Source: an uncultured Pelagibacteraceae bacterium (GTDB taxonomy: Bacteria > Pseudomonadota > Alphaproteobacteria > Pelagibacterales > Pelagibacteraceae). Taken from it: DNA of 64,000 nt. This document shows positions 5,693-56,156 of the stretch, in pieces. The stretch is taken from the NCBI GenBank assembly GCA_902585665.1, contig CACIEO010000004.1, positions 22,828-86,827 on the forward strand, in the 5' to 3' direction. Position numbers and translations under genes: made by a program. Position 1 is the first letter of the stretch; the number at the start of each line of letters is the position of its first letter. Below the pieces are notes generated by a model that had not been told where the DNA came from, made no database searches, and worked only from the letters and a program-made list of their open reading frames with translations.

Positions 5693-7049
5693 ACTTTGAT
5701 AAATCAGTATCTTTAACTAATTCACCTAAATTCTTCTTAATATACTCAGAGTCTACAACTATTTTTTCTCCCGATCTATCAGTAGCAGTAAAGCTTATTT
5801 CGTCTAAAACTCTTTCTATAATTGTATGAAGTCTTCTCGCACCTATATTTTCTACAGTTGAGTTTACCTCAGTAGCAATATTGGCTATTGTATCAATTCC
5901 GTCATCAGAAAATTCTAAGTCCACATTTTCCGTTTTTAATAATGCTTTATACTGTTTTATTAAACTATTATCTGGTTCCCTTAAAATTTTTTTAAAATCT
6001 TCACTTGTTAAAGCTTCAAGTTCAACTCTAATTGGTAAACGACCTTGTAATTCAGGTAAAAGATCTGAAGGTTTTGCTAATTGGAATGCACCAGAAGCAA
6101 TGAAAAGTATATGGTCAGTTTTAATAGGTCCATATTTTGTGCTTACAGTTGTTCCTTCAATTAAAGGTAACAAATCTCTTTGAACTCCTTCTCTTGAAAC
6201 GTCACCACCTACTCTGTCAGTTCTAGCTGAGATTTTATCAATCTCATCAAGGAATACTATACCGTTATTCTCAGTAGAATTCTTAGCAGATTTAATAATT
6301 TTATCTTGTTCAATTAATTTATCAGACTCCTCATTTATTAGAATTTCATGTGATTCTTTTACAGTCATTTTTTTCTTTTTTGCTTTATTTCCCATGCCTT
6401 TACCAAGCATTTCACCAATATTTATCATTCCAACATTTGCTCCAGGCATTCCAGGTATTTCAAATGATGGCATATTATTTGCTTCGTTAACTGCAATTTC
6501 AATCTCATTATCGTCCAAGTCACCATTTCTTAATCTTTTTCTAAAACTTTCTCTTGTTGCAACACTTGCTTTACTTCCAACAATTGCATCAAGTACTTTT
6601 TCTTCAGCCTGTTTTTGTGCTTGGGCGTAAACTTCTTTTCTTTTTTTAACCTTTTCCATAGCAATAGCTATTTCAAGTAAATCTCTTACTATTTGTTCAA
6701 CGTCTCTACCGACGTAACCTACTTCAGTAAATCTTGTAGCTTCGACTTTTACAAATGGCGCCTCTGCAAGTTTTGATAATCGTCTTGATATTTCAGTTTT
6801 ACCTACCCCTGTTGGCCCAATCATTAAAATATTTTTTGGCAAAACTTCATCTTTCATATCACCTTTTAAAGCCTGTCTTCTCCACCTATTTCTTAGTGCA
6901 ATAGCCACAGCCCTTTTAGCTTTGTTTTGCCCAACTACAAATCTGTCTAATTCTGATACTATTTCTCTTGGAGAAAGAGAATTTACAAAAGATTCATCCT
7001 GACTATTTTTATCTTTAGGGACTAAAGGTGTTACGTTATTTTTTTCCAT
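5682..7049 (-). CDS. hslU: ATP-dependent protease ATPase subunit HslU
   Basis: [25 protein letters not shown]. Confidence 0.98.
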
Positions 7050-7564
7050 TATATCTTTTCCATATTTATATTGTCATTTGTAAATACACATATTTCAGAA
7101 GCAACCTTAATTGCTTTTTTTGCTATCTCTTCAGCTGACATATCAGTATCCATTAATACTTTTGCTGATGCTAGAGCATAATTTCCACCTGATCCTATTC
7201 CAATTACATCACCTTCTGGCTCTAGAACATCACCTGTTCCTGAAATAATAAAACTTTTTTCTTTATCTCCAATTGCCATTAATGCTTCTAGTCTTCTTAA
7301 ATATTTGTCTGTTCTCCAATCTTTTGCAAGTTCAACAGCAGCTCTAGTTAAATTCCCAGCATGTTTTTCTAATTTAGATTCTAATCTTTCAAATAATGTT
7401 AGTGCATCTGCTGTTGATCCAGCAAATCCCGCGATCACATTTCTTTTCTCAATTTTTCTAACTTTGTTAGCTGTTCTCTTGATGACTGTATTTCCCATAC
7501 TTACCTGACCATCGCTAGCAACCACAACGTCTTTATTTTTTCTAACTAATACAATTGTTGTCAT
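7049..7564 (-). CDS. hslV: ATP-dependent protease subunit HslV
   Basis: N-terminal TTI nucleophile, DGQV, GSGG. Confidence 0.98.
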
Positions 7565-7570
7565 ACATGT

Positions 7571-7599
7571 TAGATGGACATTAATTTCTATAATTCAAG
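7571..7599 (-). promoter_or_regulatory. RpoH (sigma32)-like promoter of hslVU
   Basis: Minus strand reads CTTGAA-15bp-TCCATCTA just upstream of the ATG of a heat-shock operon. Confidence 0.6.
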
Positions 7600-7654
7600 T
7601 TCTTGATTACTTTTATTGATATAAGCAAATAATGAATATATACGTATTAAAATA

Positions 7655-8245
7655 ATGAAGAGAAAAGCTGATATTACTAGAAAAACAAAAGAAACATCAA
7701 TCAAGGTTGAACTAAATATTGATGGAAAAGGTCAATACAAAATTGACACAGGAATTGGTTTTCTCGATCATATGTTAGAGCAATTATCTAAACATTCTTC
7801 GATAGATTTAAAGGTTAAAGCCAAAGGCGATACTCATATTGATTTACATCACACAACCGAAGATACTGGAATTGCTATTGGTGAATGTTTGAAAAAAGCA
7901 TCAAAAAATTTTGTTGGAATAAAAAGATATGCACATGCACTTTTACCTATGGATGAAACACTAACTAGAGTAGCTCTAGATGTATCTAATAGGCCATATT
8001 TAATATGGAATGTAAAATTAAAAGTAGAAAAATTAGGTGAAATGGATACTGAATTATTCAAGGAATGGTTCCAAGCTTTTGCACAATCTGCCGGGATTAC
8101 TCTTCACATAGAAAATATTTACGGTGATAATAGTCACCATATTATCGAATCTTGTTATAAAGGACTTGCTAGATCACTTAGAGCAGCGCTTGAATTAGAT
8201 CCAAAAAATAAAAATACAGTGCCCTCTACAAAAGGTTCTTTATAA
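7655..8245 (+). CDS. hisB: Imidazoleglycerol-phosphate dehydratase
   Basis: FLDHML, HHTTED, HHIIE. Confidence 0.98.
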
Positions 8246-8256
8246 AAAAAGAATTA

Positions 8257-8883
8257 ATGAAAGTCACAATCGTCGATTATAGCTCAGGCAATATTAGTTC
8301 TGTAATTAATTCTTTTAAGGAAGTTGCAAAAGGAGAAGTTAATATAGATGTAACTTCAGATCTAAATAAGATTAAAACGAGTGATAAAGTAGTTTTGCCA
8401 GGGCAAGGTTCGTTTAAAAGTTGTGTTGATGCACTAAATAGTATTAATGGATTAGTTGAAACATTAAATGAATTTGCAATTACTAATAAAAAACCACTCC
8501 TTGGTATTTGTGTTGGCTTACAAATGTTTGCAGACATTGGATATGAAGAAACAGAAACAAAAGGCCTGGGTTGGATTTCAGGTAAAGTTTTAAAAATTGA
8601 TAATCAAAATGGAAAATACAAGCTTCCTCATATTGGCTGGAACCAAATTAGTATCATAAACGAAAGCAAGATTTTTAAAGATATAGAAAATAATTCTCAT
8701 ATGTATTTTGTTCATAGTTATGAATTTAAACCGAATGATAAAAATGTAATTTCAGCAACTACAGATTATTCATCAAATATAGTTTGTGCGGTAGAGAAAG
8801 AAAATATATTTGGAACACAATTTCACCCTGAAAAGAGTGATAAAATTGGATTACAAATTATAGAAAATTTTATAAAATTATAA
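8257..8883 (+). CDS. hisH: IGP synthase glutaminase subunit
   Basis: LPGQG, GICVG, PHIGWN, QFHPEKS. Confidence 0.98.
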   Translation: MKVTIVDYSSGNISSVINSFKEVAKGEVNIDVTSDLNKIKTSDKVVLPGQGSFKSCVDALNSINGLVETLNEFAITNKKPLLGICVGLQMFADIGYEETETKGLGWISGKVLKIDNQNGKYKLPHIGWNQISIINESKIFKDIENNSHMYFVHSYEFKPNDKNVISATTDYSSNIVCAVEKENIFGTQFHPEKSDKIGLQIIENFIKL

Positions 8884-8885
8884 AA

Positions 8886-9479
8886 ATGAAAACTGTATAT
8901 ATATTAATAAACGAGGCAATGCCCGGCATAATTAAAATTGGTTGGACTGATAAAAATGTTGAGGAGAGAATGAAAGAACTAGATAAGACCTCAACCCCAG
9001 TTCCTTTTACGTGTTATTTTGCTAAAAGAGTAGAAGATCCTACATTTGTTGAATCAAAATTGCATGAAGCTTTTGATGAATTTAGAATTAGAGATAATAG
9101 AGAGTTTTTTAGAATGTCACCAGATCAAGCTAAAGCAGCATTAGAAATTGCGACTGGCACTGATGTTACTCCAAAAGGTGATGTAGTTGAATCAGAAAGT
9201 GATAGAGTTGCGCTAAATAAAGAAAGAAATAGAAACAGATTTAATTTTGATGAAGCGGGGATAGATGCTGGTGAAATTTTAGAATTTAAGAAAGATCCAT
9301 CTATTACTGCAAAAGTGTTAGATAACGGACAAATAGATTTTAGAGGAACTAGAACTTCATTATCACAGTCAGCTTTAATAATCGTTCAAGAAATGGGTTA
9401 TAAATGGAATAAAATCGCAGGACCACAGTTTTGGATGTATAAAGGTAAGACTCTTTATGAAATAAGCCAAAACAAATGA
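8886..9479 (+). CDS. T5orf172/MUG113 GIY-YIG-family nuclease with RAMA-like C-terminal domain
   Basis: VYIL..KIGWT..ERMKEL..ESKLH..REFF; C-terminus AGIDAGEILEF..AKV..GQIDF..SLSQSA..GPQFW..GKTL. Confidence 0.8.
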   Translation: MKTVYILINEAMPGIIKIGWTDKNVEERMKELDKTSTPVPFTCYFAKRVEDPTFVESKLHEAFDEFRIRDNREFFRMSPDQAKAALEIATGTDVTPKGDVVESESDRVALNKERNRNRFNFDEAGIDAGEILEFKKDPSITAKVLDNGQIDFRGTRTSLSQSALIIVQEMGYKWNKIAGPQFWMYKGKTLYEISQNK

Positions 9480-10192
9480 AAATATTCCCAGCTATAGATA
9501 TTAAAGACAAAAAATGTGTAAGGTTAGTTAAAGGGAACTTCGATAACAAAACTGAATATGAAATGTCTCCTGTTGAACAAGCAGGAAAATATAAAGATCA
9601 TGGCTTCAAAAATTTACACATTGTTGATTTAGACGGGGCTTTAACTGGTGAAACAGTAAATTTAAATATTATTCAGGATATAGTTGGTAAATTTAATTTA
9701 AAGATTGAGGTAGGCGGTGGTATTCGAAATTCTGATAGTATTCAGAAATATATCGATGCTGGTGTTGAGAAAGTAATTTTAGGAAGTGCTGCTATTAAAG
9801 ATAAGAATTTTTTAAAAGAAACATGTGAAAAATTTCCAAATAAAATTGCTTTAGGTTTGGATGCTAAAGATGGTTATCTGTCGGTATCTGGATGGACAGA
9901 AAAATCTAATCAATTGACTTTAGATTATTTAAAAGAAGTTAATGATTATGGAGTTAGTAGATTGATTTATACTGATATTAATAAAGATGGCATGAAACAA
10001 AGCCCAAATTTTGAGCAAACATCAAAAGTTGCTGAAATATCAAATTGTCCTGTGATTATATCTGGCGGAGTTTCATCAATAGATGACATTAAAAAAGCGA
10101 AGAATTTAAAAAATGTTGAAGGTATAATAGTTGGTAAAGCTATTTACGATGGTGATATTAAATTAGAAGACCTTGTGAAAGAAGATGCTTAA
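9476..10192 (+). CDS. hisA: ProFAR isomerase
   Basis: IFPAID, VDLDGA, GGGIR, TDI. Confidence 0.98.
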
Positions 10193-10940
10193 AAATAGAA
10201 TAATTCCTTGTTTAGATGTAAAGAACGGTCGTGTTGTAAAAGGCATTAACTTTATTGATTTAAAAGATGCAGGAGATCCTGTTGAACAAGCTAAAATTTA
10301 TAGCGATGGAGGCGCTGATGAAATTTGTTTTTTAGATATTACAGCCTCAAATGAAAATAGAGATACTATTTATGACGTTGTAGAAAAAACTTCAAAGAAA
10401 TGTTTTGTCCCTTTAACAGTGGGTGGAGGAGTAAGAAGTGTTGAAGATATAAGTAAACTACTTAACTGTGGCGCTGATAAAGTTTCAATAAATACAGCTG
10501 CAGTAAATGATAAGCAGGTTGTTGTTAATAGCTCAAAAAAATTTGGTTCTCAATGTATCGTTGTTGCTATAGATGCAAAAAAAAATGGAGATGTATGGGA
10601 GATTTATACTCATGGTGGAAGAAATAAAACGGGTATTGATGCAATAAAATTTGCAAAACAAATGGAAATAAGTGGTGCAGGGGAATTACTCGTAACATCA
10701 ATGGATAGAGATGGTACACAGGTCGGATATGATATTGATCTCATGTCGAATATTACATCTGCTGTAAATATTCCTGTTATTGCCTCTGGTGGAGTTGGTA
10801 CTTTAGATCATTTAGTGGATGGTATTAAATTAGGTAATGCGAGTGCAGTGCTAGCAGCTTCAATCTTTCACTACGGTAAATATTCAGTAAAACAGGCAAA
10901 GGAATATTTGGATTCAAAGGGAATTCCAGTTAGAATTTAA
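10185..10940 (+). CDS. hisF: IGP synthase cyclase subunit
   Basis: [21 protein letters not shown]. Confidence 0.98.
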
Positions 10941-10941
10941 T

Positions 10942-11226
10942 ATGCTTAAAACTTTAGAAGATTTAATTAAAATAATAAGAGAGAGAAAATCCTCATCAGA
11001 TGATAACTCCTACACATCAAAATTACTTAAAGATAAATCTTTATCTTTGGGTAAGGTCAAAGAGGAGATTGGTGAACTTATAGAGGCTGTAGAAAATAAT
11101 TCAAATAAAGTTCACGAGGCAGCTGATGTTCTTTATCATTTATTAGTTTATCTAGAAGGAAATGGCGTCCGTATTGAGGATATCATGAATGAATTAGAAA
11201 AAAGGAAGAAAAAAAAAGAGTCTTAA
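10942..11226 (+). CDS. hisE: Phosphoribosyl-ATP pyrophosphatase
   Basis: SYT, KVKEE, EAADVLYH. Confidence 0.95.
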   Translation: MLKTLEDLIKIIRERKSSSDDNSYTSKLLKDKSLSLGKVKEEIGELIEAVENNSNKVHEAADVLYHLLVYLEGNGVRIEDIMNELEKRKKKKES

Positions 11227-11270
11227 AAAGACAAAATTAGTGTTAGCCTTCCAAAAAATTAAATTCATTT

Positions 11271-12209
11271 ATGAGCCACAAGTTTTATAAACCTGCAAGG
11301 TCAAGACTTCAGAGAAGTGAATTAGCAGTTCCAGGTTCGTCGCCGAAAATGTTTGAAAAGGCTTTAAATTCTGATGCAGATTATGTCTTCTTAGATTTAG
11401 AAGATGCAGTTTCTCCAAATGATAAAGTTGCAGCGAGAGCAAATGTTGTTAAAGCTTTAAATGAAATTAATTGGCGAGATAAAGGAAAAACTATTTCAGT
11501 AAGAATTAACAGTTTGGATACTCATTACATGTATAGCGATTTAGTTGAGCTTGTTGAGCAAGCAGGGAAAAATATTGATACAATACTTGTTCCAAAAGCA
11601 GGAACAGCAAGTGATGTTTACATGGTAGATTGTTTGCTAACTCAAATAGAAACAAACAAAAAAATTGAAAATAAAATTGGAATAGAGTGTTTAATTGAAA
11701 CTGCTTTAGGTATGTCCAATATAAAAGAAATTGCAAAATCAAGCGAAAGGTTAGAGGCGTTACATTTTGGTGTAGCTGACTATGCTGCAAGTCTTAGAGC
11801 AAGAACTGTTGTGATAGGCGGACTAAATCCAGATTATCCGGGAGACCAATGGCATCACGGATTATCAGAATTAGTTATGACATGCAGAGCATATGGGCTT
11901 AGAGCGATAGACGGACCTTTTGGAGATTTCAATGATCCAGATGCATATATTGCTTCAGCAAAAAGAGCTGCTGCTATCGGTATAGAAGGTAAATGGGCAA
12001 TACATCCGTCTCAAATAGATTTAGCAAATAAAGTTTTTTCACCACCAGAAGCTGAAGTTAAAAAAGCAAAAAGGATTTTAGAAGAATTAGATAAAGCAGC
12101 AAAAGAGGGAAAAGGCGCGGCACAACTAGATGGAAGAATGATAGATGCAGCATCTGCACGGATGGCAGAAAATATTGTAAATATAAATAAAAAAATAGAG
12201 GATAAATAA
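11271..12209 (+). CDS. mcl: Malyl-CoA lyase (CitE/HpcH family)
   Basis: RLQRSELAVPGS, FLDLEDAV, LHFGVADYAAS, DQWH, DGPFGDF, GKWAIHP closely match MclA of serine-cycle bacteria; adjacent to mtkAB. Confidence 0.88.
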   Translation: MSHKFYKPARSRLQRSELAVPGSSPKMFEKALNSDADYVFLDLEDAVSPNDKVAARANVVKALNEINWRDKGKTISVRINSLDTHYMYSDLVELVEQAGKNIDTILVPKAGTASDVYMVDCLLTQIETNKKIENKIGIECLIETALGMSNIKEIAKSSERLEALHFGVADYAASLRARTVVIGGLNPDYPGDQWHHGLSELVMTCRAYGLRAIDGPFGDFNDPDAYIASAKRAAAIGIEGKWAIHPSQIDLANKVFSPPEAEVKKAKRILEELDKAAKEGKGAAQLDGRMIDAASARMAENIVNINKKIEDK

Positions 12210-12210
12210 A

Positions 12211-13374
12211 ATGGATATTCATGAGTACCAAGCAAAAAAAATTCTCGCAGGATTTGGAGTTGCAGTACCAAGAGGCGGGATAGTTTACAGTCCAGAAAAT
12301 GCAGAAAATAAAGCAAGAGAACTTGGAGGATCTAAGTGGGTTGTAAAAGCACAAATTCATTCAGGAGCAAGAGGAAAAGCTGGGGGGATAATTGTCTGTA
12401 AAACAGAATTAGAAGTTGCACAAGCTACAGATAAACTTTTAGGAAAAAAACTAGTAACTAACCAAACTGGACCTGAAGGAAAAATTGTTAATAGAGTTTA
12501 TATTGAGGAAGCAACCGATATTAAAAAAGAATTATACCTTGGACTTGTTTTTGATAGAAGCTCAGAGTCTATAATGGTAGTAGCTTCCACTGAGGGAGGC
12601 ATGAGTGTTGAGGAAATTTCAAAACAAAAACCAGAAACAATTATTAGATCAAAAATTGAGGTGGCCGTTGGTATGCAACAATTTCAAGCAAGAGAAATTG
12701 CTTTTGGTCTTGGAATTGAACCAAAGCTTATCTCTAGAATGGCTGAGGCAATTACTGGTTGTTACCGAGCATTTAGCGAATTAGATGCAACTATGGTTGA
12801 GGTAAATCCACTCGTAATTTCAAACCAAGAACAAATTTTAGCTTTGGATTGTAAAATGAGCTTTGATAATAATGCGTTATTTAGAAGAAACCAAATTTCA
12901 GAATTAAGAGATAAAACTCAAGAAAATGCTAGTGAGGTTTATGCATCTGATAGAGGTCTTAACTACGTAAGTTTAGATGGGAATATAGGTAATATTATTA
13001 ATGGTGCTGGTTTAGCTATGGCTTCAATGGATATGATAAAATTAGCTGGGGGAGAACCGGCTAATTTCTTAGATGTTGGTGGAGGCGCAACACCTGAAAA
13101 GATTGTGAAGGCATTCAAGCTAATTTCAATGGATAAAAAAGTAAAAGTAATCCTGGTCAATATTTTTGCTGGAATAAATAGATGTGATTGGGTGGCAGAG
13201 GGAATAGTTCAAGCACTTCAAAAAATAGAAATAAAAGTACCATTAGTTATTCGGCTTGCAGGTACAAATGTAGAAAAGGGCAATCAAATATTAAAAGAAA
13301 GTAAAATTAATTATATCGAAGCCAATACTTTGGAGGATGCAGCAAACAAAGCGGTAAAAGCGTTAGGAAAATAG
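12211..13374 (+). CDS. mtkA: Malate--CoA ligase (malate thiokinase) beta subunit
   Basis: SucC fold with HSGARGKAGG and NIFAGINRCDWVAEG (SucC has NIFGGI.RCD). Confidence 0.88.
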   Translation: MDIHEYQAKKILAGFGVAVPRGGIVYSPENAENKARELGGSKWVVKAQIHSGARGKAGGIIVCKTELEVAQATDKLLGKKLVTNQTGPEGKIVNRVYIEEATDIKKELYLGLVFDRSSESIMVVASTEGGMSVEEISKQKPETIIRSKIEVAVGMQQFQAREIAFGLGIEPKLISRMAEAITGCYRAFSELDATMVEVNPLVISNQEQILALDCKMSFDNNALFRRNQISELRDKTQENASEVYASDRGLNYVSLDGNIGNIINGAGLAMASMDMIKLAGGEPANFLDVGGGATPEKIVKAFKLISMDKKVKVILVNIFAGINRCDWVAEGIVQALQKIEIKVPLVIRLAGTNVEKGNQILKESKINYIEANTLEDAANKAVKALGK

Positions 13375-14262
13375 ATGTCAGTATTAATTGATGAAAGTAC
13401 AAAAATATTAATTCAAGGTTTTACAGGAAAAATGGGAACATTCCATGCTGAGGAAATGATAAAGTATGGCTCGAAAGTGGTTGGTGGTGTTACTCCCGGC
13501 AAAGGAGGATCAAAACATTTAAATTTACCAGTTTTTAATACAGTAAAAGAAGCTGTAGAAACTACAGGAGCATCAGCCTCAATATTATTTGTTCCCCCAG
13601 CTTTTGCAGCGGACTCAGCCATGGAAGCAGCTGATGCTGGCATAAAAACGTGTGTTGCTATCGTTGATGGAATACCATCTCACGATATGATTAGAATTAA
13701 AAGATACATGAGGAGATATTCAAGAGTTCAAAAAATGACTTTGGTTGGACCTAACTGTGCAGGAGTAATAAGCCCAGGTAAAGCAATGCTTGGAATAATG
13801 CCAGGACATATCTACAAAGAAGGAAAGGTTGGCATTATTGGAAGATCAGGAACTCTTGGATATGAAGCAGCCCAACAAATGAAAAATTTAGGAATTGGAA
13901 TTTCAACAAGTGTTGGAATTGGAGGAGATCCAATTAACGGAAGTTCTTTTAAAGATATTTTAGAAAAATTTGAAGAAGATAAAGAAACCGACGCAGTTTT
14001 AATGATTGGTGAAATTGGTGGACCACAAGAAGTTGCAGCTGGAAAGTTTGCAAAAGAAAATATGAAAAAACCTGTGATAGCTTACATTGCTGGATTAACA
14101 GCTCCAAAAGGTAGAGTTATGGGGCATGCAGGTGCTATAGTTTCAGCATATGGAGAAAGTGCTGTCGAAAAAGTGGAACTTTTAAAAGAGTGTGGGGTTA
14201 CAATTTCTAAAAACCCCTCAGTTATGGGGGAAACTGTAAAATCAGTATTAATTAAAAAATAG
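13375..14262 (+). CDS. mtkB: Malate--CoA ligase alpha subunit (SucD-like)
   Basis: GVTPGKGG, GPNCAG, GRSGTLGYE, MGHAGA phospho-His; follows mtkA. Confidence 0.85.
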   Translation: MSVLIDESTKILIQGFTGKMGTFHAEEMIKYGSKVVGGVTPGKGGSKHLNLPVFNTVKEAVETTGASASILFVPPAFAADSAMEAADAGIKTCVAIVDGIPSHDMIRIKRYMRRYSRVQKMTLVGPNCAGVISPGKAMLGIMPGHIYKEGKVGIIGRSGTLGYEAAQQMKNLGIGISTSVGIGGDPINGSSFKDILEKFEEDKETDAVLMIGEIGGPQEVAAGKFAKENMKKPVIAYIAGLTAPKGRVMGHAGAIVSAYGESAVEKVELLKECGVTISKNPSVMGETVKSVLIKK

Positions 14263-14263
14263 A

Positions 14264-14608
14264 ATGAGCATATTTAGGATCATTACTTTTTTAGTTTTAG
14301 GTTTCATTGTTTATAAAGTTTTTGTTGCAGTTAAAGATTTTGAAGTAGGTCTCGATAAAAGGGTAGAGAAAGTTGAAGCATTGGGCTTAGGTAAAGAAGA
14401 TGAAGTAATTGGTTTAATGATGTACCTAGGAGACCCAGAAGATCTTGAATTAGTTGAACATTTATTGGTAAAAAATAGATCAAAATGTTTAGAAATGAAA
14501 AATAATGCAGAAGAGGTCTCAAATGCATACTATGAATGTGCTAGATTAAACGCTATTGTTAAAGATGGAAAAATTATTTCTGTAATAAAGGAACTTGAAG
14601 TTTTATAA
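14264..14608 (+). CDS. Hypothetical membrane-anchored protein with Cys pair
   Basis: N-terminal TM helix, soluble domain with two Cys; coupled to neighbours. Confidence 0.7.
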   Translation: MSIFRIITFLVLGFIVYKVFVAVKDFEVGLDKRVEKVEALGLGKEDEVIGLMMYLGDPEDLELVEHLLVKNRSKCLEMKNNAEEVSNAYYECARLNAIVKDGKIISVIKELEVL

Positions 14609-14973
14609 TGAGCTACGATGAAAATAATATATTTGCTAAAATTTTAAGAGGAGAAATACCTTGCAAGAAAATATATGAAGATGAGTTTGTACTATCCTTT
14701 TATGACATAAATCCACAAAAAAAAATTCATGCCTTAGTTATTCCGAAGGGAAAATATATTGATTTAGACGATTTTTGTAAAAACGCATCGTCAAATGAAA
14801 TGGTGGGTGTGTTTAAAGGTATAGAAGCAGTTGCAAAAAAACTAAGTATTTCAAATGACAAAGGCAAAGGCTATAGAGCTTTGACAAACATCGGTAGAGA
14901 TGGGGGTCAAGAGGTACCTCATCTTCATTTTCATTTGTTTGGTGGTGAAAAAATAGGTAAAATGGTCGAGTGA
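14608..14973 (+). CDS. HIT (HinT-like) nucleotide-binding protein
   Basis: NIFAKIL and QEVPHLHFH histidine triad. Confidence 0.95.
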   Translation: MSYDENNIFAKILRGEIPCKKIYEDEFVLSFYDINPQKKIHALVIPKGKYIDLDDFCKNASSNEMVGVFKGIEAVAKKLSISNDKGKGYRALTNIGRDGGQEVPHLHFHLFGGEKIGKMVE

Positions 14974-15473
14974 CTCAAACAATAGACAGATATTTTCTAG
15001 ATATAAGTTCAATTAATAATTTAAATTTAAAATCAAAACCTTCAGATAAGTATTTATTAAATAAAGAAAGTAAAAATAATTTCGATCTTAATAAATTTTT
15101 TTATAAACAAATTGGTAAAAAACACCAGTGGACCGATAGGCTGATTTGGCAAGATAAAAATTGGATTGACTATGTATCAAATGAAAAAGTAGAAACCTAT
15201 ATTTTACGAACCGAGGATGATTTAATAGGGTATTTTGAACTAATTTTTGAAGGAAATAATTGTGAGTTAGCATACCTTGGTATTCTTGAGGAATATATTG
15301 GTAAAGGTTTGGGGGGATTTTTACTTTCTGAGGCATTGAAGATTGGACTCCGAAAAAGCAAAAGAGTTTGGGTTCACACTTGTTCATTAGACCATCCAAA
15401 TGCTATTGAAAACTACAAATTACGCGGCATGAAAATATTTAAAACTGAAACACTAAGAAGAAAAGTAATCTAA
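14970..15473 (+). CDS. GNAT family N-acetyltransferase
   Basis: YIGKGLG acetyl-CoA motif, WVHTCSLDHP. Confidence 0.88.
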   Translation: MTQTIDRYFLDISSINNLNLKSKPSDKYLLNKESKNNFDLNKFFYKQIGKKHQWTDRLIWQDKNWIDYVSNEKVETYILRTEDDLIGYFELIFEGNNCELAYLGILEEYIGKGLGGFLLSEALKIGLRKSKRVWVHTCSLDHPNAIENYKLRGMKIFKTETLRRKVI

Positions 15474-15482
15474 AGGAAAAGT

Positions 15483-16325
15483 TTGATTATTTGGATAGCT
15501 TCATACCCAAAGAGTGGAAATACTTGGATTAGATCGATTATTTCATCATATTTTTTTTCAGATACTGGAAAATTCAATTTTGATTTATTAGGTAATATTC
15601 CTCAATATCCAAGCTCAAAGTATTTTAAATTTCCTATAAAAAAACCTGGAGAAGTAAGTCTATATTGGAAAAGTACACAAGATGAATTAAGCAAAAACAA
15701 TAAGAATGTTTTTTTAAAAACACATAATGCAATGGTGGCTCTTAACGGAAGAGATTTCACATCTTCGACAAATACTCTTGGCTCCATTTATATAGTTAGA
15801 GATCCAAGAAATATAATTTCTTCAATGAAAAACCATTATGATTTCGATGATTATTCTGAAACGTTTGATTTTATGGTTAATAAAAGAAAATTTATATGGG
15901 ATGAAAGAGAAAACAATAATTATTCGAGCTTTCAGTTTTTAGGATCCTGGTCTGATCACTACAAATCTTGGTTAAAAAATTCTTCGTTTAAAACATTGCT
16001 TGTTAAGTATGAGGATTTAGAAAAAGATTGTTATTCAACATCTCTAAAAATTATTGAATTTATAAATTTTTTAAAAGGTGAAAATGTGAAGGTTGATGAA
16101 AAGAAACTATTTAATTGTATACAAACAACAAATTTTGATATTTTAAAAAAAAAAGAGATCGAAAATGGTTTTCAAGAAAGTATAAAGTATAAAGATAAAA
16201 AAAAAGATTTTTTTTATTTAGGCCCCAAAAATAAATGGCAAGAAAAATTACCTAAAGATATTTTATCAAGGGTAAAAAAAGAGTTTATCGATGATTTAAA
16301 GTATTTTAATTATAGTCTTGACTAG
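15483..16325 (+). CDS. PAPS-dependent sulfotransferase
   Basis: SYPKSGNTW (5'-PSB loop), KTH, YIVRDPRN..SS (3'-PB), KYEDL. Confidence 0.92.
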   Translation: MIIWIASYPKSGNTWIRSIISSYFFSDTGKFNFDLLGNIPQYPSSKYFKFPIKKPGEVSLYWKSTQDELSKNNKNVFLKTHNAMVALNGRDFTSSTNTLGSIYIVRDPRNIISSMKNHYDFDDYSETFDFMVNKRKFIWDERENNNYSSFQFLGSWSDHYKSWLKNSSFKTLLVKYEDLEKDCYSTSLKIIEFINFLKGENVKVDEKKLFNCIQTTNFDILKKKEIENGFQESIKYKDKKKDFFYLGPKNKWQEKLPKDILSRVKKEFIDDLKYFNYSLD

Positions 16326-16872
16326 GAAGTCTAAATTTATTTTTTTCTATATTAACATTTTTCTGTAAATTAAATAAATATGTGATTACTAAATTTTGAT
16401 AAATATCAACATTTTGCCAACCTATGATATCGTAAGTAACTTTATCGAAAAAAATATTTATTTGGTAGTCTCCTTCTAAAAATTTGAAACGAAAGTATTT
16501 TGAATCTATCATTTCACCTTTGTTTTTCCTCATTTTTTCTATCAAAAACTCTTTATCTAATATCAAATTAAATGCAGTTTTTTCTATGGGATATATATAA
16601 TATTGATTATTAGTAAGGTTTTTAATTACTAATTTTTTTCCGTTTGATACCAATATTTTCCTTTTAAAATTTTTGTACTCGCAAAAAATCTTTTTTGGAT
16701 ATTCTATTACACACTGTCCTTGTTCTATTTCTTCGTTAATGTTTTGTTTAAATTCAAATGAAAGATTATTAGTATCTTCAAAGTTTTGAATAATTTTACT
16801 TTTAATTGATGCTAATAAATAATTAGGATGAATAAGATAAATAATGAATAAGATGAATTTTATATATTTCAT
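16306..16872 (-). CDS. lolA: Outer-membrane lipoprotein carrier LolA
   Basis: Signal peptide, FKQ, YPKKIFCEY, LVSNG; follows ftsK. Confidence 0.8.
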   Translation of the reverse strand: MKYIKFILFIIYLIHPNYLLASIKSKIIQNFEDTNNLSFEFKQNINEEIEQGQCVIEYPKKIFCEYKNFKRKILVSNGKKLVIKNLTNNQYYIYPIEKTAFNLILDKEFLIEKMRKNKGEMIDSKYFRFKFLEGDYQINIFFDKVTYDIIGWQNVDIYQNLVITYLFNLQKNVNIEKNKFRLPSQDYN

Positions 16873-25573: not shown

Positions 25574-27394
25574 TTAGTGTTGTTTACCAAGTACTGTTTT
25601 ACCACTAGGTACACGCACTTCATCAACCATTTTTTGTGTAGCTGAGTCAGGCGCTTTAGTAATTAAGCTCACTACTATCATTGAGACTAAACTTACTAAT
25701 GATCCAACAATACCAAATGTTAACTGAGTTATACCCCAGAATCCTGCTCCACCAGTACGTACCCAAATTAGATACGCAGTTCCTGAAGCCAGACCTAGAA
25801 GCATCCCTGCCACTGCACCTTGTGCATTTGCTCTCTTCCACCATACACCAAGTACAAGTGGGAAGAACAACCCTGACATTGCAAAGTCAAAAGCCCATAT
25901 GACCGAACCTAAGATACCTTGAATTTCAAGTGCAGCAATTGTTGCTCCAGCAAAACCGATTACTACAAGAAGTACCCTTGCAACAATCAATCTTTTAGCA
26001 GTTTCTGCTTTAGGGTCTATGATTTTGTAATATAAATCATGAGACAAAGCATTTGCGATTGCTAAAACAAGACCGTCAGCTGTTGACATGGCAGCCGCCA
26101 TACCACCTGCTGCAACCAATCCTGAAATTACATAAGGCAATCCTGCTATCTCTGGAGTTGCTAATACAACGGCTTTACCACCCATGAAAAACTCGTTTAA
26201 CTCGAGAGTTCCATTTCCATTAAAGTCGCTTATAAACATTAAGTTTGCTTGGTTCCAGTTTTGATACCAATCTATAGCTTGCACTTCTGCGATTGATTTA
26301 CCTATAATTCCAGTTGGAAGTGTAGGATCCATCAAAGACAGTTTTGATAATGTAGCTAACATCGGTGCAGAACAATACAGTAGGAATATAAAGAATAATG
26401 ACCAACCTACAGATCTTCTCGCTGCTTTTACGCTCGGCGTAGTAAAGTATCTCATCATTACGTGAGGTAATGAAGCAGTTCCGGCCATCATACAAACTGC
26501 TAATGAGATAAACTTCCAAGGCGTTGTGTTAACTTCAGAGTGTGCTTTTGTGATACCAGCTAAACCTTTTGGCACTGTAGCTAAATCAGCAGCAGAATTT
26601 TTGACAGTTCCAAGTCCGAATTGAGACTCTAACTCTGCAATCCTTGCTACTTCATCTGCTAACATTAGGTGTGGGAATACCCCTGCACCCATTTTGTTGC
26701 TTATCCAGAAAACAGGTAACAAGTAAGCTATAATCAATACAATGTACTGAGCTACTTGCGTCCATGTAACTGCTCTCATTCCACCTAGCATTGAGCAAAG
26801 TAAAATACTTGCTAAACCAACATAAACAGCAATTCCAAATGGAATATCTAATGCTACTGATGCAATAGTACCGGTCGCATTAATTTGTGCTGTAACGTAA
26901 GTGAATGAAGCAACTGTTAAAACTAGAACAGCACAAAGTCTTGCGACGTTACCACCGTATCTAGTACCAATAAAGTCTGGAACAGTGTAGCATCCAAACT
27001 TTCTCAAGTATGGTGCTAGTAGTGATGCAACTAAAACGTAACCACCAGTCCAACCAACTAGTAATGCCATGTAGCCATAACCTTTGAAATATATTCCTCC
27101 AGCCATAGCAACAAACGATGCACCTGACATCCAGTCAGCCGCAGTCGCCATTCCATTAAATACAGTTGGTACTTGTCGACCTGCTACATAGTATGCGTCA
27201 ACTTGAATTGTTCGAGACAGGTAACCAATTATAGCATAGATCGCCACTGTAAATGATACGAAAAATATTCCAATCATTTTAGCAGTCATTCCAGCTTGTT
27301 CAGCTATTGCCATCAAAATTATAAATACTAGAAATCCTCCAGTATATATTCCATAAACTTTGGGCAAGTTATCTATAAATTTACCTTTAATCAT
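25574..27394 (-). CDS. actP: Sodium:solute symporter, ActP/VC_2705 family (acetate/monocarboxylate)
   Basis: NGMATAADWMSGASF, GTASLPHV.MRY; paired with a DUF4212 gene; near acs. Confidence 0.85.
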   Translation of the reverse strand: MIKGKFIDNLPKVYGIYTGGFLVFIILMAIAEQAGMTAKMIGIFFVSFTVAIYAIIGYLSRTIQVDAYYVAGRQVPTVFNGMATAADWMSGASFVAMAGGIYFKGYGYMALLVGWTGGYVLVASLLAPYLRKFGCYTVPDFIGTRYGGNVARLCAVLVLTVASFTYVTAQINATGTIASVALDIPFGIAVYVGLASILLCSMLGGMRAVTWTQVAQYIVLIIAYLLPVFWISNKMGAGVFPHLMLADEVARIAELESQFGLGTVKNSAADLATVPKGLAGITKAHSEVNTTPWKFISLAVCMMAGTASLPHVMMRYFTTPSVKAARRSVGWSLFFIFLLYCSAPMLATLSKLSLMDPTLPTGIIGKSIAEVQAIDWYQNWNQANLMFISDFNGNGTLELNEFFMGGKAVVLATPEIAGLPYVISGLVAAGGMAAAMSTADGLVLAIANALSHDLYYKIIDPKAETAKRLIVARVLLVVIGFAGATIAALEIQGILGSVIWAFDFAMSGLFFPLVLGVWWKRANAQGAVAGMLLGLASGTAYLIWVRTGGAGFWGITQLTFGIVGSLVSLVSMIVVSLITKAPDSATQKMVDEVRVPSGKTVLGKQH

Positions 27395-27776: not shown

Positions 27777-28403
27777 ATGGTGCTCAAATACAAATTCAAT
27801 CTAAAAGATATATCTCTAGAAGATTTTAGGGTTTACTTCTTTGCTTTATTTAAGGCCTTAATTCCAAAAAAAAAAATAAAAAATATTAGTGATCTAGAAA
27901 AGTTTATTCAAAAAAAATCTGCATGGGTAACACAAGTAACATTGTACAGTTACCTCAAAACAAGAATGGGTACTAAATATGTACTTCATTTTGATAATGA
28001 AATACTTTTATCATCAATTAATAAAGCAAAGTGGAATATTTATATTGTTGCACTTCAAGATTTAACTTTTTATAGTTTTTCTTACATCAGAAATTTTTTT
28101 AATTACCAAGATGTTGAGAAATCAAAAGATATTTTTTTTTCTATATTGGAAAATGAAAAAAAAAATGGAATGCCAGAAGAAATTATAATTGAGGCAAAAA
28201 AAACATTTGCTGAAAGATTTTCAAAAATTAGTTGGGATCAACACTATAATTCACTTCCATTTAATGATAGCGCATTAGCATTATACAAGTGGGCCCCTAT
28301 TGCAGATGAGTTAAAAAAATTAGATAGAAAGATTGTTTTAAATTCCATGATTTTAAAATGGGATAATATTAAGGAAGAGTTTCAAAAGCTAATTGACTTT
28401 TAA
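27777..28403 (+). CDS. Conserved hypothetical protein
   Basis: 208-aa ORF between the symporter operon and acs; no motif I can assign. Confidence 0.7.
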
Positions 28404-30460
28404 GTATTTTTTCTCTCACTTACCAAGTTCTTTACTACACTAGGGTCTGCAAGAGTAGTTGTATCACCCAACTGATCGTATTCATTAGCTGCAATTTTTC
28501 TTAAAATTCTTCTCATAATTTTACCAGATCTAGTTTTTGGAAGTGCTGGTGCAAATTGTATAAAGTCTGGGTAAGCATGCTTCCCAACTGTACTTTTTAC
28601 ATGAAGTTTTAAATCTCTCTCGAGATCCATGTTTGGGCTCTCTCCAGAATTTAAAGTTACATAACAATATAAACCATTTCCTTTTATGTCATGTGGATAT
28701 CCAACAACTGCAGCCTCAGCAACTTTTGGGTGTTTAACGAAAGCGCTTTCAATTTCAGCAGTCCCTAGATTATGTCCTGATACAATTATTACATCATCTA
28801 CTCGTCCAGTAATCCAATAGTAACCATCTTTATCTCTTCTGCACCCATCTCCGGTAAAATACTTTCCATCAAATTGAGAAAAATATGTATCTATAAACCT
28901 TTGGTGATCTCCATAAACTGTTCTCATTTGACCCGGCCATGATTGTGCAATACATAATCTTCCCTGTCCTTGTCCCTTAATAACTGATCCGTTTTTATCG
29001 ACTATTACTGGTTTAATTCCATAAAAAGGTTTGGTCGCAGAGCCAGGTTTCAAATCAATTGCACCAGTTTGAGGACTTATTAAAATACCTCCAGTTTCAG
29101 TTTGCCACCATGTATCAACAATTGGACATCTAGAATCACCTACTGTTTTATAATACCACTCCCATGCCTGAGGATTTATTGGTTCACCAACTGTACCAAG
29201 CAGTTTCAGAGATTTACGGGATGTTTTTTTGACCAGTTTATCACCCTCTTTCATCAATGCTCTTATTGCAGTTGGGGCAGTATAAAAAATATTTACTTTA
29301 TATTTATCGATGATCTGCCACCATCTGGAAGCATCTGGATACGTCGGCACACCTTCAAACATAACTGTTGTGGCACAATTAGAAAGTGGTCCATAAATTA
29401 TGTAACTGTGTCCTGTAATCCATCCTATGTCAGCGCTACAAAAATAAATATCTTTTGGTTTATAATTAAATATATATTGATGTGTCATTGAAGCATAAAC
29501 CATATAACCACCCGTAGTATGAAGTACACCTTTTGGTTTTCCAGTCGAACCAGATGTGTAGAGAATAAATAGAGGATCTTCAGCATTCATTTCCTCTGGT
29601 TCACAGTTAGCCGAAACATTTTTAATCATTTCGTGGTACCAAACATCTCTGCTTTCATCCCAATTTATTCTGTTTCCAGTTCTTTTAACCACAATACATT
29701 TTTTTACCCTAGGGCATTCGACTAAAGCTTCATCTGTAATTGATTTAAGATGTATTATTTTTCCAGATCTTACCCCTTCATCTGCAGTTATGACATAATC
29801 TGACTCACAATCATTTATTCTTGTTGCAATACTATCAGGAGAAAATCCACCAAATATTATTGAATGTATTGCACCAATCCTAGCACAAGCCAACATTGTG
29901 TAAGCAAGTTCAGGTATCATTGTTAAATAAATTGTAACTCTATCACCTTTTTTAACACCAAGTTCCTTAAGTCCATTGGCAGCTTTTGAAACTTCATTAT
30001 GTAATTGTTTATAAGAAATTTTTTTTTGAATTTTAGGATCATCGCCGACCCAAATTATTGCGGTCTTATCCTTATTTTTCTTCAAATGTCTATCAATACA
30101 ATTGGCAGAAGCATTAAGGGTTCCATCATAATACCATTTTATATGAACATCTGATTTGCTATATTTTACGTCCTTTATTTTCGAATAAGGTTTAATCCAA
30201 GTAATTCTTTTGCCCTCTTTTTTCCAAAAACTTTCGTTATCTTTTAATGACTGTTTATATTTTTTTTCATATTCTGATTTACTTATTGAAGATTTTTTGA
30301 CCCAATCAGTTTTTACTTTATAAATAGTCTCTTTAAGATCATCGGCTTTTTGAATCTTACTAGAACTGGCTTTTTTTTTTGTTTTAGAAATTATTTTTCT
30401 TTTACTTTTTTTCTTTTTATTTGATTTTGACTTTTTCTTTTTCTTCTTTTTTTTTGGCAT
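28400..30460 (-). CDS. acs: Acetyl-CoA synthetase with Lys-rich N-terminal extension
   Basis: [37 protein letters not shown]. Confidence 0.97.
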
Positions 30461-47010: not shown

Positions 47011-48162
47011 ATGAGATTAAAAGATTGTCATAACTTTCAAGATTTTAGAAAATTAGCTGAAAAAAAACTCCCAAGTCCTATATTTCACTACATCGATGGT
47101 GCTGCTGATGATGAAATTACTTATAGTCGAAACACTTCAGCTTTTAATGATGTAGACCTTGTACCAAATGTTTTACGTGGGGTAGAAAATGTCGATTTAT
47201 CAACCACAATTTTCGGAAAAAAAATTGATCTACCATTCTATTGTTCCCCTACAGCTTTGCAGAGACTGTTTCACTATGATGGTGAAAGAGCAGTTGGTAA
47301 AGCGGCAAAAAAATTTAATACTATGTTTGGAGTTTCAGCTCTCGCAACAGTTAGTGTAGAGGAAATTTCCTCTATGATTGATACACCTAAAATGTTTCAA
47401 TTTTATTTTCACAAAGACAGAGGTTTAAACGACTCTTGCCTAGAACGTGCTAAAGCAGCAAAGTTTGATGTTATGGCTTTAACAGTAGACACAATTACTG
47501 GAGGAAATAGAGAGAGAGATCTTAGAACAGGTTTTACTTCTCCACCAAAATTAACATTAGCAAGTTTATTTAGTTTTGCTACAAAACCAATGTGGGGAAT
47601 AAACTATCTTACAAAAGGCAAATTTGAGTTACCTCATTTACAAGATTACGTAAAAGAAGGTACAAGCACAAACACTTCTATTGGTAATTATTTTTCTACA
47701 ATGTTAGATCAGTCAATGAATTGGAAAGATGCAGAAAAATTATGTGCTCAATGGGATGGCCATTTTGCTCTTAAAGGAGTAATGAGTGTCGAAGACGCAA
47801 AAAAAGCAGTTGATATTGGTTGTACTGGTATAATGGTTTCAAATCATGGAGGAAGACAACTTGATGGCTCTAGATCCCCTTTCGATCAGTTGGCTGAAAT
47901 TGTAGATGCTGTTGGTGATAAAATTGATGTTATTTGCGAAGGTGGATTTCAAAGAGGTACACACATGTTGAAAGCTTTGTCACTTGGTGCAAAAGCATGT
48001 GCAGGTGGAAGATTATATTTGTATGCATTAGCAGCAGCTGGACAAGCAGGTGTCGAAAGAGCTTTAGGTCAATACAAAGCTGAATTAGAAAGAGATATGA
48101 AACTTATGGGATGCACTAAAATAAGTGATCTCAGTAGAAAAAATTTAAGATTTAGAATTTAA
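47011..48162 (+). CDS. FMN-dependent alpha-hydroxy acid dehydrogenase (LldD/glycolate oxidase family), paralog 1
   Basis: YIDG, LTVD, LKG, SNHGGRQLD. Confidence 0.93.
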   Translation: MRLKDCHNFQDFRKLAEKKLPSPIFHYIDGAADDEITYSRNTSAFNDVDLVPNVLRGVENVDLSTTIFGKKIDLPFYCSPTALQRLFHYDGERAVGKAAKKFNTMFGVSALATVSVEEISSMIDTPKMFQFYFHKDRGLNDSCLERAKAAKFDVMALTVDTITGGNRERDLRTGFTSPPKLTLASLFSFATKPMWGINYLTKGKFELPHLQDYVKEGTSTNTSIGNYFSTMLDQSMNWKDAEKLCAQWDGHFALKGVMSVEDAKKAVDIGCTGIMVSNHGGRQLDGSRSPFDQLAEIVDAVGDKIDVICEGGFQRGTHMLKALSLGAKACAGGRLYLYALAAAGQAGVERALGQYKAELERDMKLMGCTKISDLSRKNLRFRI

Positions 48163-49313
48163 TGAAAATTTCTGATTGCAGAAATTTCAACGATTTTAGA
48201 ATACTTGCAAAAAAAAAACTTCCTGCACCTATTTTTCATTATATAGATGGTGGTGCTGACGATGAAGTTACATTAAGAAGAAATACTAGTGCCTTTGATG
48301 ATTGTGATTTAATCCCAAATATTCTAACGAGCGTTGGTAAACCAGATTTATCAACAACAATTTTTGGCAGGAAAATAGACATGCCTATTTTTCTTTCTCC
48401 AACTGCAATGCAAAGATTATACCACCCGGATGGGGATAAGGCCTCAGCAAGAGCAGCAGAGAAATTTGGTACTTTCTACAGCATGTCGACAATGGCAAAT
48501 AATTCTATTGAGGAAATATCAAATATCTCAAGTGGTCCAAAATTATTCCAGCTTTATGTTCACAAAGATAAATCAATCACTGACGACTTATTGGATAGAT
48601 GTAAAAGGTCAGGTTTTGATGGTATGTGCCTTACTGTAGATACTTTGGTTGCAGGAAACAGAGAGAAGGATCATAAAACTGGATTTACAACTCCTCCTAA
48701 ACTTACTTTAAACAGTTTGCTAAGTTTTGCATTAAGACCGTCATGGGTATTGAAATATTTAACAAATAAAAAATTTGAATTATCTAATGTTAAAAAAAAA
48801 ACCGATAAAGGAACTAATATCGCAAAATCAGTAATAGATTATATCAATGAACAATATGACCCCAAGATGAACTGGGAAGATGCAGAGTATTGTGTAAAAA
48901 GATGGAATGGACCATTCGCATTAAAAGGAGTTATGTCCGTAGAGGATGCAAAGCGTGCAATTGATATAGGATGTACAGCTATAATGGTATCCAACCATGG
49001 AGGAAGACAATTGGATGGTTCTCGATCTCCTTTTGATCAAATAAAATCTATCTCAGATGCAGTCGGTGATAAATTAGAAATAATACTTGATGGAGGTGTC
49101 AGGAGAGGAACGCATGTTCTTAAAGCCTTAGCAGCTGGTGCAAAAGCATGTAGTTTTGGCAAAATGTTTCTGTTTTCTTTGAGCGCAGGTGGTCAACAAG
49201 GCGTTGAACATTTATTAAAAATGATGCATGATGAAATAAATAGAAATATGATTTTGATGGGATGTAAAAACTTATCAGAGTTAAATAGTTCAAAAATAAT
49301 TTATAGAAAGTAG
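48162..49313 (+). CDS. FMN-dependent alpha-hydroxy acid dehydrogenase, paralog 2
   Basis: YIDGG, FQLY, SNHGGRQLD, DGGVRRG. Confidence 0.93.
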   Translation: MKISDCRNFNDFRILAKKKLPAPIFHYIDGGADDEVTLRRNTSAFDDCDLIPNILTSVGKPDLSTTIFGRKIDMPIFLSPTAMQRLYHPDGDKASARAAEKFGTFYSMSTMANNSIEEISNISSGPKLFQLYVHKDKSITDDLLDRCKRSGFDGMCLTVDTLVAGNREKDHKTGFTTPPKLTLNSLLSFALRPSWVLKYLTNKKFELSNVKKKTDKGTNIAKSVIDYINEQYDPKMNWEDAEYCVKRWNGPFALKGVMSVEDAKRAIDIGCTAIMVSNHGGRQLDGSRSPFDQIKSISDAVGDKLEIILDGGVRRGTHVLKALAAGAKACSFGKMFLFSLSAGGQQGVEHLLKMMHDEINRNMILMGCKNLSELNSSKIIYRK

Positions 49314-49327
49314 ATTGGAGATTTAGA

Positions 49328-50491: not shown

Positions 50492-50511
50492 GCTTATTTT
50501 ATTAATCGGAT

Positions 50512-50520
50512 TGTTATACT
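50512..50520 (+). promoter_or_regulatory. Extended -10 promoter (leaderless) for the FAD-linked oxidase
   Basis: TGTTATACT followed by 6 nt and the ATG at 50527. Confidence 0.55.
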
Positions 50521-50526
50521 AATTCA

Positions 50527-51903: not shown

Positions 51904-51906
51904 ACT

Positions 51907-52860: not shown

Positions 52861-52977
52861 AAGTATAAAATTCTACTCAAAGTTGTAAATAATTTTGAAT
52901 AGGTCTATTTAGCAAAAGACTCTTACAACCATTTATGCTTAAATTATTACAAGTTAATTAACTAAAGAGGAGAAATA

Positions 52978-54123: not shown

Positions 54124-54140
54124 TTATTAACTTCAATATT

Positions 54141-54172
54141 TAAAAAGGGGACCAAATGGTCCCCTTTTTTTT
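54141..54172 (+). terminator. Rho-independent terminator after the TRAP SBP gene
   Basis: AAAAAGGGGACCA-AA-TGGTCCCC followed by a T-run. Confidence 0.9.
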
Positions 54173-54210
54173 GTTTGCTTTAATTATATATTTTAACATA
54201 AGGTACGGAA

Positions 54211-56149: not shown

Positions 56150-56156
56150 TTTTTAA

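Follow-up and report, generated by a model that had tools for sequence, protein, structure and literature searches.

A malyl-CoA lyase and malate thiokinase cassette in SAR11 bacteria that may supply glyoxylate and glycine from malate

SAR11 bacteria are the ocean's most abundant heterotrophs, and one Pelagibacteraceae (SAR11) single-cell genome (G000; 1.10 Mb in 24 contigs, 86% complete, ∼30% G+C) carries on contig C4 three adjacent genes, mcl, mtkA and mtkB, predicted to encode a malyl-CoA lyase (Mcl) and the two subunits of a malate thiokinase (MtkAB). What would such a cassette do in a streamlined heterotroph? Both enzymatic steps are reversible, and an earlier reading of the 64,000-nucleotide stretch of C4 analysed here (the window), made from its letters alone (the sequence-only reading), had offered two answers: (a) a route making glyoxylate, and hence glycine, from malate, or (b) a substitute for malate synthase. 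The present analysis leans towards a module that runs from malate to glyoxylate and acetyl-CoA, so feeding glycine and serine. Answer (a) gains support from fuller variants of the locus in other SAR11 genomes and from a precedent in Escherichia coli, and it is from these that we infer the direction of flux. The cassette spans window positions 11271–14262, and its open reading frames (ORFs) are co-directional:

11271–12209, plus strand: mcl, L-malyl-CoA/β-methylmalyl-CoA lyase (CitE-like, MCLR type), 312 amino acids
12211–13374, plus strand: mtkA, malate–CoA ligase (malate thiokinase) beta subunit, 387 amino acids
13375–14262, plus strand: mtkB, malate–CoA ligase alpha subunit, 295 amino acids

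The product of the first ORF has the HpcH_HpaI fold (PF03328, E 5e-41). Its closest solved relative is the Methylobacterium extorquens malyl-CoA lyase (5ugr, E 2e-113, 382 bits), followed by Rhodobacter sphaeroides Mcl (4l9y, 283 bits), and citrate-lyase-like (CitE) and RipC relatives score far below both. In the R. sphaeroides lyase the catalytic and Mg2+ residues are Arg76, Glu141, Asp168 and Asp299, together with Asp42, Glu44 and Asp45 (PMC3832036), and alignment showed that all of the cassette equivalents (R78, E143, D170 and D292, with D42, E44 and D45) are conserved. The last position of the first set is informative, as Asp or Glu at MCLR position 299 distinguishes the lyase from the Mcl2 thioesterase (PMC3832036); the corresponding cassette residue, 292, is the lyase-type Asp and not the thioesterase-type Glu. 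The fold, the close relatives and the catalytic residues together confirm the prediction that this ORF encodes a malyl-CoA lyase.

MtkA passes the NCBIfam equivalog NF010647, 'malate--CoA ligase subunit beta', with 640.7 bits against a cut-off of 604, and scores lower, at 526 bits, on the SucC model PRK00696. MtkB is a SucD-type alpha subunit with CoA_binding and Ligase_CoA domains and a phosphohistidine motif, MGHAGA, at residues 249–254. A search of PDB sequences returned no solved Mtk structure among its matches. MtkA shares ∼48–51% identity with SAR11 SucC, and the phylogeny that the sequence-only reading had proposed as a check places the two in separate clades: a maximum-likelihood tree splits MtkA from SAR11 SucC with 100/100 support. 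The MtkA clade takes in mcl-adjacent copies from Methylococcaceae, Gemmatimonadales, Thioglobus and Arenicellales, several of them within serine-cycle clusters, and two marine gammaproteobacterial metagenome-assembled genomes (MAGs) are sister to the SAR11 MtkA clade.

The suspicion that the ligase is the genome's only SucCD is true of the assembly, in which tblastn found no second sucC or sucD, but it reflects an assembly gap. Genome G010 has a cassette 99% identical to that of G000 and carries sucC 67 kb downstream of mtkA; contig C4 of G000 ends at the G010-equivalent position 160678, contig C19 spans 161242–165880, and the stretch beyond, including sucCD, is unassembled. This synteny accounts for the missing genes. 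Moreover, SucC and MtkA are both present in seven of the eight cassette genomes tested (all five single-contig genomes and two drafts), the eighth, 83% complete, showing MtkA alone. These comparisons support the predicted identity of MtkAB as a malate–CoA ligase that is extra to the tricarboxylic acid (TCA)-cycle SucCD.

The cassette had been described as tightly packed between hisE and a gene of the HIT family. This holds within the cassette, where the gaps are 1 nucleotide (mcl/mtkA) and 0 nucleotides (mtkA/mtkB), but not at its edges, where a 44-nucleotide spacer separates hisE from mcl and a further ORF precedes the HIT gene:

10942–11226, plus strand: hisE (phosphoribosyl-ATP diphosphatase), with PRA-PH and TIGR03188 matches; left edge of the insertion
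14264–14608, plus strand: ORF of 114 amino acids with no Pfam or NCBIfam match; a variable neighbour outside the cassette
14608–14973, plus strand: HIT-family (HinT-like) gene, with NCBIfam NF007965 and NF045834 matches; right edge of the insertion site

The left flank reads hisB-hisH-(T5orf172 ORF)-hisA-hisF-hisE, and the HIT gene is the constant right flank of every cassette locus in a his context. In G013, G024 and G018, congeners that have no cassette, hisE and the HIT gene are immediate neighbours; the cassette is therefore an accessory insert. The 114-amino-acid ORF is independent of it: cassette-free G008 has the order hisE-ORF-HIT, and G004 and G005 carry the cassette without the ORF.

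How widespread is this insert? In an even draw of 301 family genomes, mtkA was found in 21 (∼7%; the tally includes an unpublished genome, G267, on which no other result depends), and it was present in 13 of the 123 family genomes that are at least 90% complete. Thirteen of 86 other genomes of the G000 genus have it (15%), with 7 more occurrences in three further genera, while in a set of 41 relatives mtkA occurs together with mcl in 5 of the 25 genomes of the genus. The locus of the Pelagibacteraceae single-cell genome AG-915-K22 is almost the same as that of G000 (protein identity 99–100% for mcl and 100% for mtkAB), and metagenomes hold many near-identical copies under the Joint Genome Institute label 'malate-CoA ligase subunit beta'. 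Among 20 public SAR11 cassette loci, 13 lie in the his context, six in a methylated-amine locus and one beside an fdh-like gene. The methylamine site is bounded on one side by a DAO-family flavoprotein gene beside gmaS and on the other by an ORF of 115 amino acids followed by tdm (DUF1989 plus GCV_T); this interval, from tdm to DAO/gmaS, is the commonest cassette site across genera, and in G000 it is present and empty. In the tree, his-site copies are interleaved with methylamine-site copies, which indicates that the cassette has moved between sites. The ratio of nonsynonymous to synonymous substitution (dN/dS) is 0.02–0.08 among SAR11 copies, with dS near or past saturation, and 0.02–0.05 for mcl; the cassette is under purifying selection.

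The order mcl-mtkA-mtkB is kept in ∼60 loci from many phyla, mtkB always following mtkA. Outside SAR11, in Gammaproteobacteria, Gemmatimonadales and Roseovarius, the trio is often one part of a complete serine-cycle cluster that also includes sga, ppc, MOFRL glycerate kinase, FTR and folD. The trio also occurs without sga, ppc or gck within 6 kb in other streamlined marine lineages. These are L045 and L064, which are marine Gammaproteobacteria MAGs of ∼32% G+C; L060 and L065, which are Thioglobus-like; and L047–L059 and L098, single amplified genomes labelled 'uncultured Alphaproteobacteria' with 26% G+C, whose MtkA nests inside the SAR11 clade. This distribution suggests that the cassette passes between lineages of oligotrophic bacterioplankton.

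The fuller variants of the locus bear on the direction of flux. In the methylamine site of L032, of the closed genome G307 and of G054, sga stands divergent from mcl-mtkAB-ppc; in that of G130 the order is mcl-mtkAB-ppc, and sister-family genome G026 has mtkAB-ppc. The island-linked aminotransferase is of Sga type (class V). The island-type Ppc proteins share 61–93% identity with one another and ∼51% with core SAR11 Ppc, and they accompany mtkAB across two families. In G307, a single contig, the core-type ppc is broken into four pieces in different frames (C1:447677–450222), while the island-type gene next to mtkB is intact (C1:925105–927774); the core gene thus appears to be pseudogenised, which suggests that the island ppc is its functional replacement. 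Taken together, Ppc, the core malate dehydrogenase (Mdh), MtkAB, Mcl and an Sga/AGXT-type aminotransferase lead from phosphoenolpyruvate (PEP) and CO2 to glycine and acetyl-CoA. In addition, the neighbours of the islands in the methylamine locus generate one-carbon (C1) units on tetrahydrofolate (THF). In the tree the basal branch of the Pelagibacteraceae copies is that of L032, with its sga and its ppc, a position that fits reduction from a fuller island without proving it.

The remainder of a serine cycle was sought without success. The sequence-only reading was correct in placing the cassette outside a serine-cycle cluster and in noting that no ppc, sga or gck lies beside it: the sole ppc of G000 is of the core type, not the island type, and lies on a different contig (C2:161189–163828), and the assembly yielded neither sga nor glycerate kinase. 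A search of the closest cassette-bearing relatives of G000 also returned no sga. Glycerate kinase of the MOFRL type (PF05161) had no match in ∼16 SAR11 genomes, including six cassette bearers at least 97% complete, and that of the GlxK type (PF02595) had none in G000, G004, G013, G041 and G042. For hydroxypyruvate reductase, G000 offers generic D-2-hydroxyacid dehydrogenases (window 51907–52860 and C2:94470–95639), which may or may not have that specificity. The genes looked for as serine-to-PEP return steps were not found in the SAR11 genomes tested.

Two further pathways were considered and rejected. A 'modified serine cycle' via serine dehydratase was discarded on finding no Fe-S serine dehydratase (SDH_alpha) in five genomes, and the ethylmalonyl-CoA pathway was discarded for want of ccr (best TIGR01751 score 70 bits against a cut-off of 379; other ethylmalonyl-CoA and 3-hydroxypropionate partners were not searched). 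As a separate observation, the closed, cassette-free genome G013 has a second class-V aminotransferase (C1:1108645–1109715; a 387-amino-acid frame with 246 bits on PF00266), which was not found in G000, G004, G005 or G010 and is no Sga homologue.

How, then, might the cassette work? Malate would come from PEP or pyruvate and CO2 through Ppc and Mdh, or from the uptake of C4 acids. MtkAB would convert malate and ATP to malyl-CoA, which Mcl would split into acetyl-CoA and glyoxylate. Glyoxylate would be transaminated to glycine by an aminotransferase that we infer for G000, and GlyA would join glycine to methylene-THF, from the oxidation of methyl groups that is abundant in SAR11, to yield serine. 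Such a route would be linear, the 'front half' of the serine cycle, starting at PEP and ending at glycine and serine, with no closed methylotrophic cycle; the dependence of SAR11 on glycine and serine would be eased, and the three-gene copy in the window would be the reduced core of a fuller island. The linkage to Sga and to a dedicated Ppc, the C1-THF neighbourhood and a rescue experiment in E. coli together favour the cleavage direction. In that experiment mtkAB and mcl alone rescued a glycine/C1 auxotroph through glyoxylate (PMC11880463). Cultured SAR11 strains are reported to show glycine/serine auxotrophy that is eased by glycolate via glyoxylate (PMC6775983, PMC12636525). G000 and four single-contig congeners, of which three carry the cassette, yielded no serC.

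A more far-reaching version can be advanced tentatively, and we regard it as possible but doubtful. It holds that a sizeable SAR11 minority has an open serine pathway (sga, mcl, mtkAB and a dedicated ppc in the tdm/gmaS locus) in which Ppc fixes CO2, the malate so formed is split into acetyl-CoA and glyoxylate, and glycine made from the glyoxylate captures methyl-derived C1 units as serine, so that these cells are prototrophic for glycine and serine, and the window copy is a reduced, relocated derivative in which the part that forms glyoxylate is kept.

Several observations weigh against the cleavage reading. Sequence cannot fix the direction of two reversible steps, and G000 itself is without a linked sga and an island ppc. 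An sga/AGXT homologue was not found anywhere in its 86% complete assembly by tblastn and search, nor was a Sga homologue in the closed cassette genomes G186 and G271; in these three another aminotransferase must therefore act. A glyoxylate aminotransferase activity is implied in HTCC1062, in which glycolate substitutes for glycine (PMC6775983). G000 already has a source of glyoxylate in isocitrate lyase (aceA), and what the cassette would add is not obvious. Closed congeners have a threonine-aldolase-family gene, so that the strict glycine auxotrophy of this lineage is assumed from the literature. There is also no regulatory tie to glycine: an Rfam scan of the window returned just a tRNA and the ffh small RNA, with no riboswitch at the cassette, which sits in the his operon without a recognisable promoter of its own. 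A scan of positions 7000–16500 gave fewer promoter-like sites than shuffled sequence, a result that is uninformative on regulation, and found no plus-strand terminator from hisB to the HIT gene.

The opposite direction has to be weighed against these points. Acetyl-CoA and glyoxylate would then be joined to malyl-CoA and released as malate with the gain of ATP, in parallel to malate synthase G, and each glyoxylate that came from glycolate, glycine or glycine betaine would return one ATP. We think both the route and its ATP gain unlikely in the cassette bearers, although the reversibility of both reactions (for Mcl, PMC3832036) permits them and the window holds genes that could give the substrates. 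As the sequence-only reading had stated, these include acetate genes, both on the minus strand:

25574–27394, minus strand: SSF/ActP-like transporter (symporter)
28400–30460, minus strand: acs

A third candidate source is a co-directional plus-strand cluster at 47011–57494 with two flavin mononucleotide-dependent L-2-hydroxyacid dehydrogenases, a class I/II aminotransferase, a GlcD-like flavin adenine dinucleotide oxidase, a D-2-hydroxyacid dehydrogenase, a tripartite ATP-independent periplasmic (TRAP) transporter (DctPQM) and an amidase. This cluster could carry glycolate to glyoxylate, with transamination to follow, and so could partner the cassette in either direction. The tdm/gmaS surroundings of other copies also fit a glycine-yielding catabolism. 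What counts against condensation is that nothing has been replaced. G000 retains both glcB (C6:25335–26051) and aceA, and glcB is present in 22 of 24 genomes of the genus, including all the cassette bearers examined, five of them closed. The proposals that the cassette substitutes for malate synthase and that it co-occurs with loss of glcB are therefore not supported here, and what is left is a possible parallel, ATP-saving route beside malate synthase. Furthermore, a dedicated Ppc beside mtkAB suits the feeding of malate and not its making, and no natural Mtk system of characterised physiology is known to run in any direction but towards malyl-CoA. A reversible valve that equilibrates the malate, acetyl-CoA and glyoxylate pools by supply, yielding glyoxylate under a shortage of glycine and malate under a surplus of C2 compounds, uses chemistry identical to that of either direction; it would be in keeping with a cassette found at three or more different genomic sites and with no dedicated regulatory element in G000. 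However, malate synthase acting at the same time would turn it into a futile, ATP-burning cycle, and the linkage to Ppc and Sga points to one preferred direction, which makes the valve quite unlikely.

The two remaining explanations are more remote. It is very unlikely that the ligase is a succinyl-CoA synthetase or another dicarboxylate enzyme and that the lyase acts on β-methylmalyl-CoA or citramalyl-CoA. Mcl enzymes are promiscuous as well as reversible (PMC3832036), substrate preference is unreadable from sequence, and G000 shows no other sucCD; but that absence is an assembly gap, the two ligases coexist in closed genomes, MtkA scores above the cut-off of its equivalog and groups in the tree with MtkA of the serine cycle, the gene order recurs in the ∼60 loci across phyla, and ccr was not found (its other partners lying outside the search). 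A complete serine cycle supporting methylotrophic growth on C1 units is scarcely credible. The full clusters of Gammaproteobacteria, Gemmatimonadales and Roseovarius that contain mcl-mtkAB, and the oxidation of methyl groups via THF in SAR11 (PMC3160333), speak for it. Set against these are the lack of sga in G000, of the MOFRL kinase in ∼16 SAR11 genomes and of the GlxK type in five, and the failure to find Fe-S serine dehydratase or ccr, so that the canonical cycle named by the sequence-only reading as a competing explanation does not account for the cassette. The absence of these genes agrees with the published lack of C1 assimilation pathways in SAR11 Ia, which oxidises C1 compounds via THF without net assimilation (PMC3160333).

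Condensation has a better case in the sister family (f2; G025–G040). Here glcB and aceA are absent from 16 of 16 sampled genomes, all of which have an unlinked Mcl homologue, 50–57% identical (for example L019:6958–7899 and L021:6514–7452), with the 14-residue loop that the cassette Mcl lacks; mtkAB is present in two. Most f2 genomes also have an ORF of ∼650 amino acids containing a CitE-like domain. The neighbours of the Mcl homologue (accA, an xerD-like gene, secA and aro genes) are uninformative. Mcl may replace malate synthase in this family, a Mcl-based malate-forming route is plausible there, and condensation may be the main role of the module in f2, which likely corresponds to subclade III (PMC5029164).

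With cleavage as the favoured direction in the Pelagibacteraceae cassette, comparison with known systems places it closest to the serine cycle of M. extorquens AM1. The MtkAB and MclA enzymes are orthologous (Mcl at 382 bits with its catalytic residues kept, MtkA by the equivalog), and the SAR11 island variants share the mtkA-mtkB-ppc linkage and a neighbouring sga with the AM1 cluster. In contrast, G000 in its his context has no sga, glycerate kinase or island ppc, so the cycle cannot close; the SAR11 order is mcl-mtkA-mtkB, and the SAR11 lyase lacks a loop of ∼14 residues that the M. extorquens enzyme has. The host differs too, being a streamlined non-methylotroph, or 'methylovore' (PMC3160333). 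In R. sphaeroides, Mcl1 and Mcl2 (lyase and thioesterase) stand in for malate synthase in the ethylmalonyl-CoA pathway. The lyase family (283 bits to 4l9y), the Arg/Glu/Asp/Asp set and the malyl-CoA chemistry are the same, whereas the SAR11 partner is an ATP-coupled ligase and not a thioesterase, no ccr was found and malate synthase G is present.

Synthetic MtkAB–Mcl modules have been built as the reverse glyoxylate shunt, the malyl-CoA-glycerate pathway and the modified serine cycle, and into glyoxylate sensor strains of E. coli. In these, as proposed here, a stand-alone Mtk and Mcl pair in a heterotroph splits malate and relieves glycine/C1 auxotrophy (PMC11880463); they are engineered, whereas the SAR11 cassette is natural, horizontally spreading and under purifying selection. 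SucCD resembles MtkAB in its fold and two subunits, an ATP-grasp beta and a phosphohistidine alpha, and MtkAB differs in its ∼48–50% identity to SAR11 SucC, its separate clade and its status as an additional copy in closed genomes. Malate synthase, for its part, is irreversible and conserves no ATP. Malate synthase G handles the same net metabolites, from acetyl-CoA and glyoxylate to malate, but glcB is a core gene of the genus where the cassette is accessory; the catalytic core of malate synthase and the CitE-like fold are distant relatives (PMC3832036).

The sequence-only reading put the cassette forward as a candidate undescribed system, which overstates the case. These are textbook enzymes, and the genes already carry automatic database labels; only their role in SAR11 appears to be undiscussed. 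Literature searches on SAR11 together with these enzymes or the serine cycle returned no paper treating the cassette. A pangenome study names agxt in offshore genera as a possible bypass of glycine/serine auxotrophy, with no mention of Mcl or Mtk, its supplements included (PMC12636525). Models of carbon flow in the sea, and of cross-feeding with phytoplankton, depend heavily on the need of SAR11 for glycine and serine and on its oxidation of C1 compounds without assimilation. If the cleavage reading is right, part of the SAR11 population would be free of that need, biomass would take in CO2 and carbon from methyl groups, and a pangenome difference would be linked to a testable phenotype. If the open serine pathway is also real, cells described as 'methylovorous' and glycine-auxotrophic would assimilate carbon from C1 units and CO2.

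A smaller insertion lies upstream in the same operon. Between hisH and hisA, at window 8886–9479 on the plus strand, is an ORF of 197 amino acids with a T5orf172/MUG113 domain (GIY-YIG-like nuclease family). The AG-915-K22 locus (L025) is without it, and its hisH is 83% identical against 94–98% for the flanking his genes. Inserts of 0.9–2.8 kb occur at the same junction in other SAR11 loci (L027, L037, L039, L041 and L043), and the pattern at the hisH–hisA junction suggests a small hypervariable site or an insertion of homing type.

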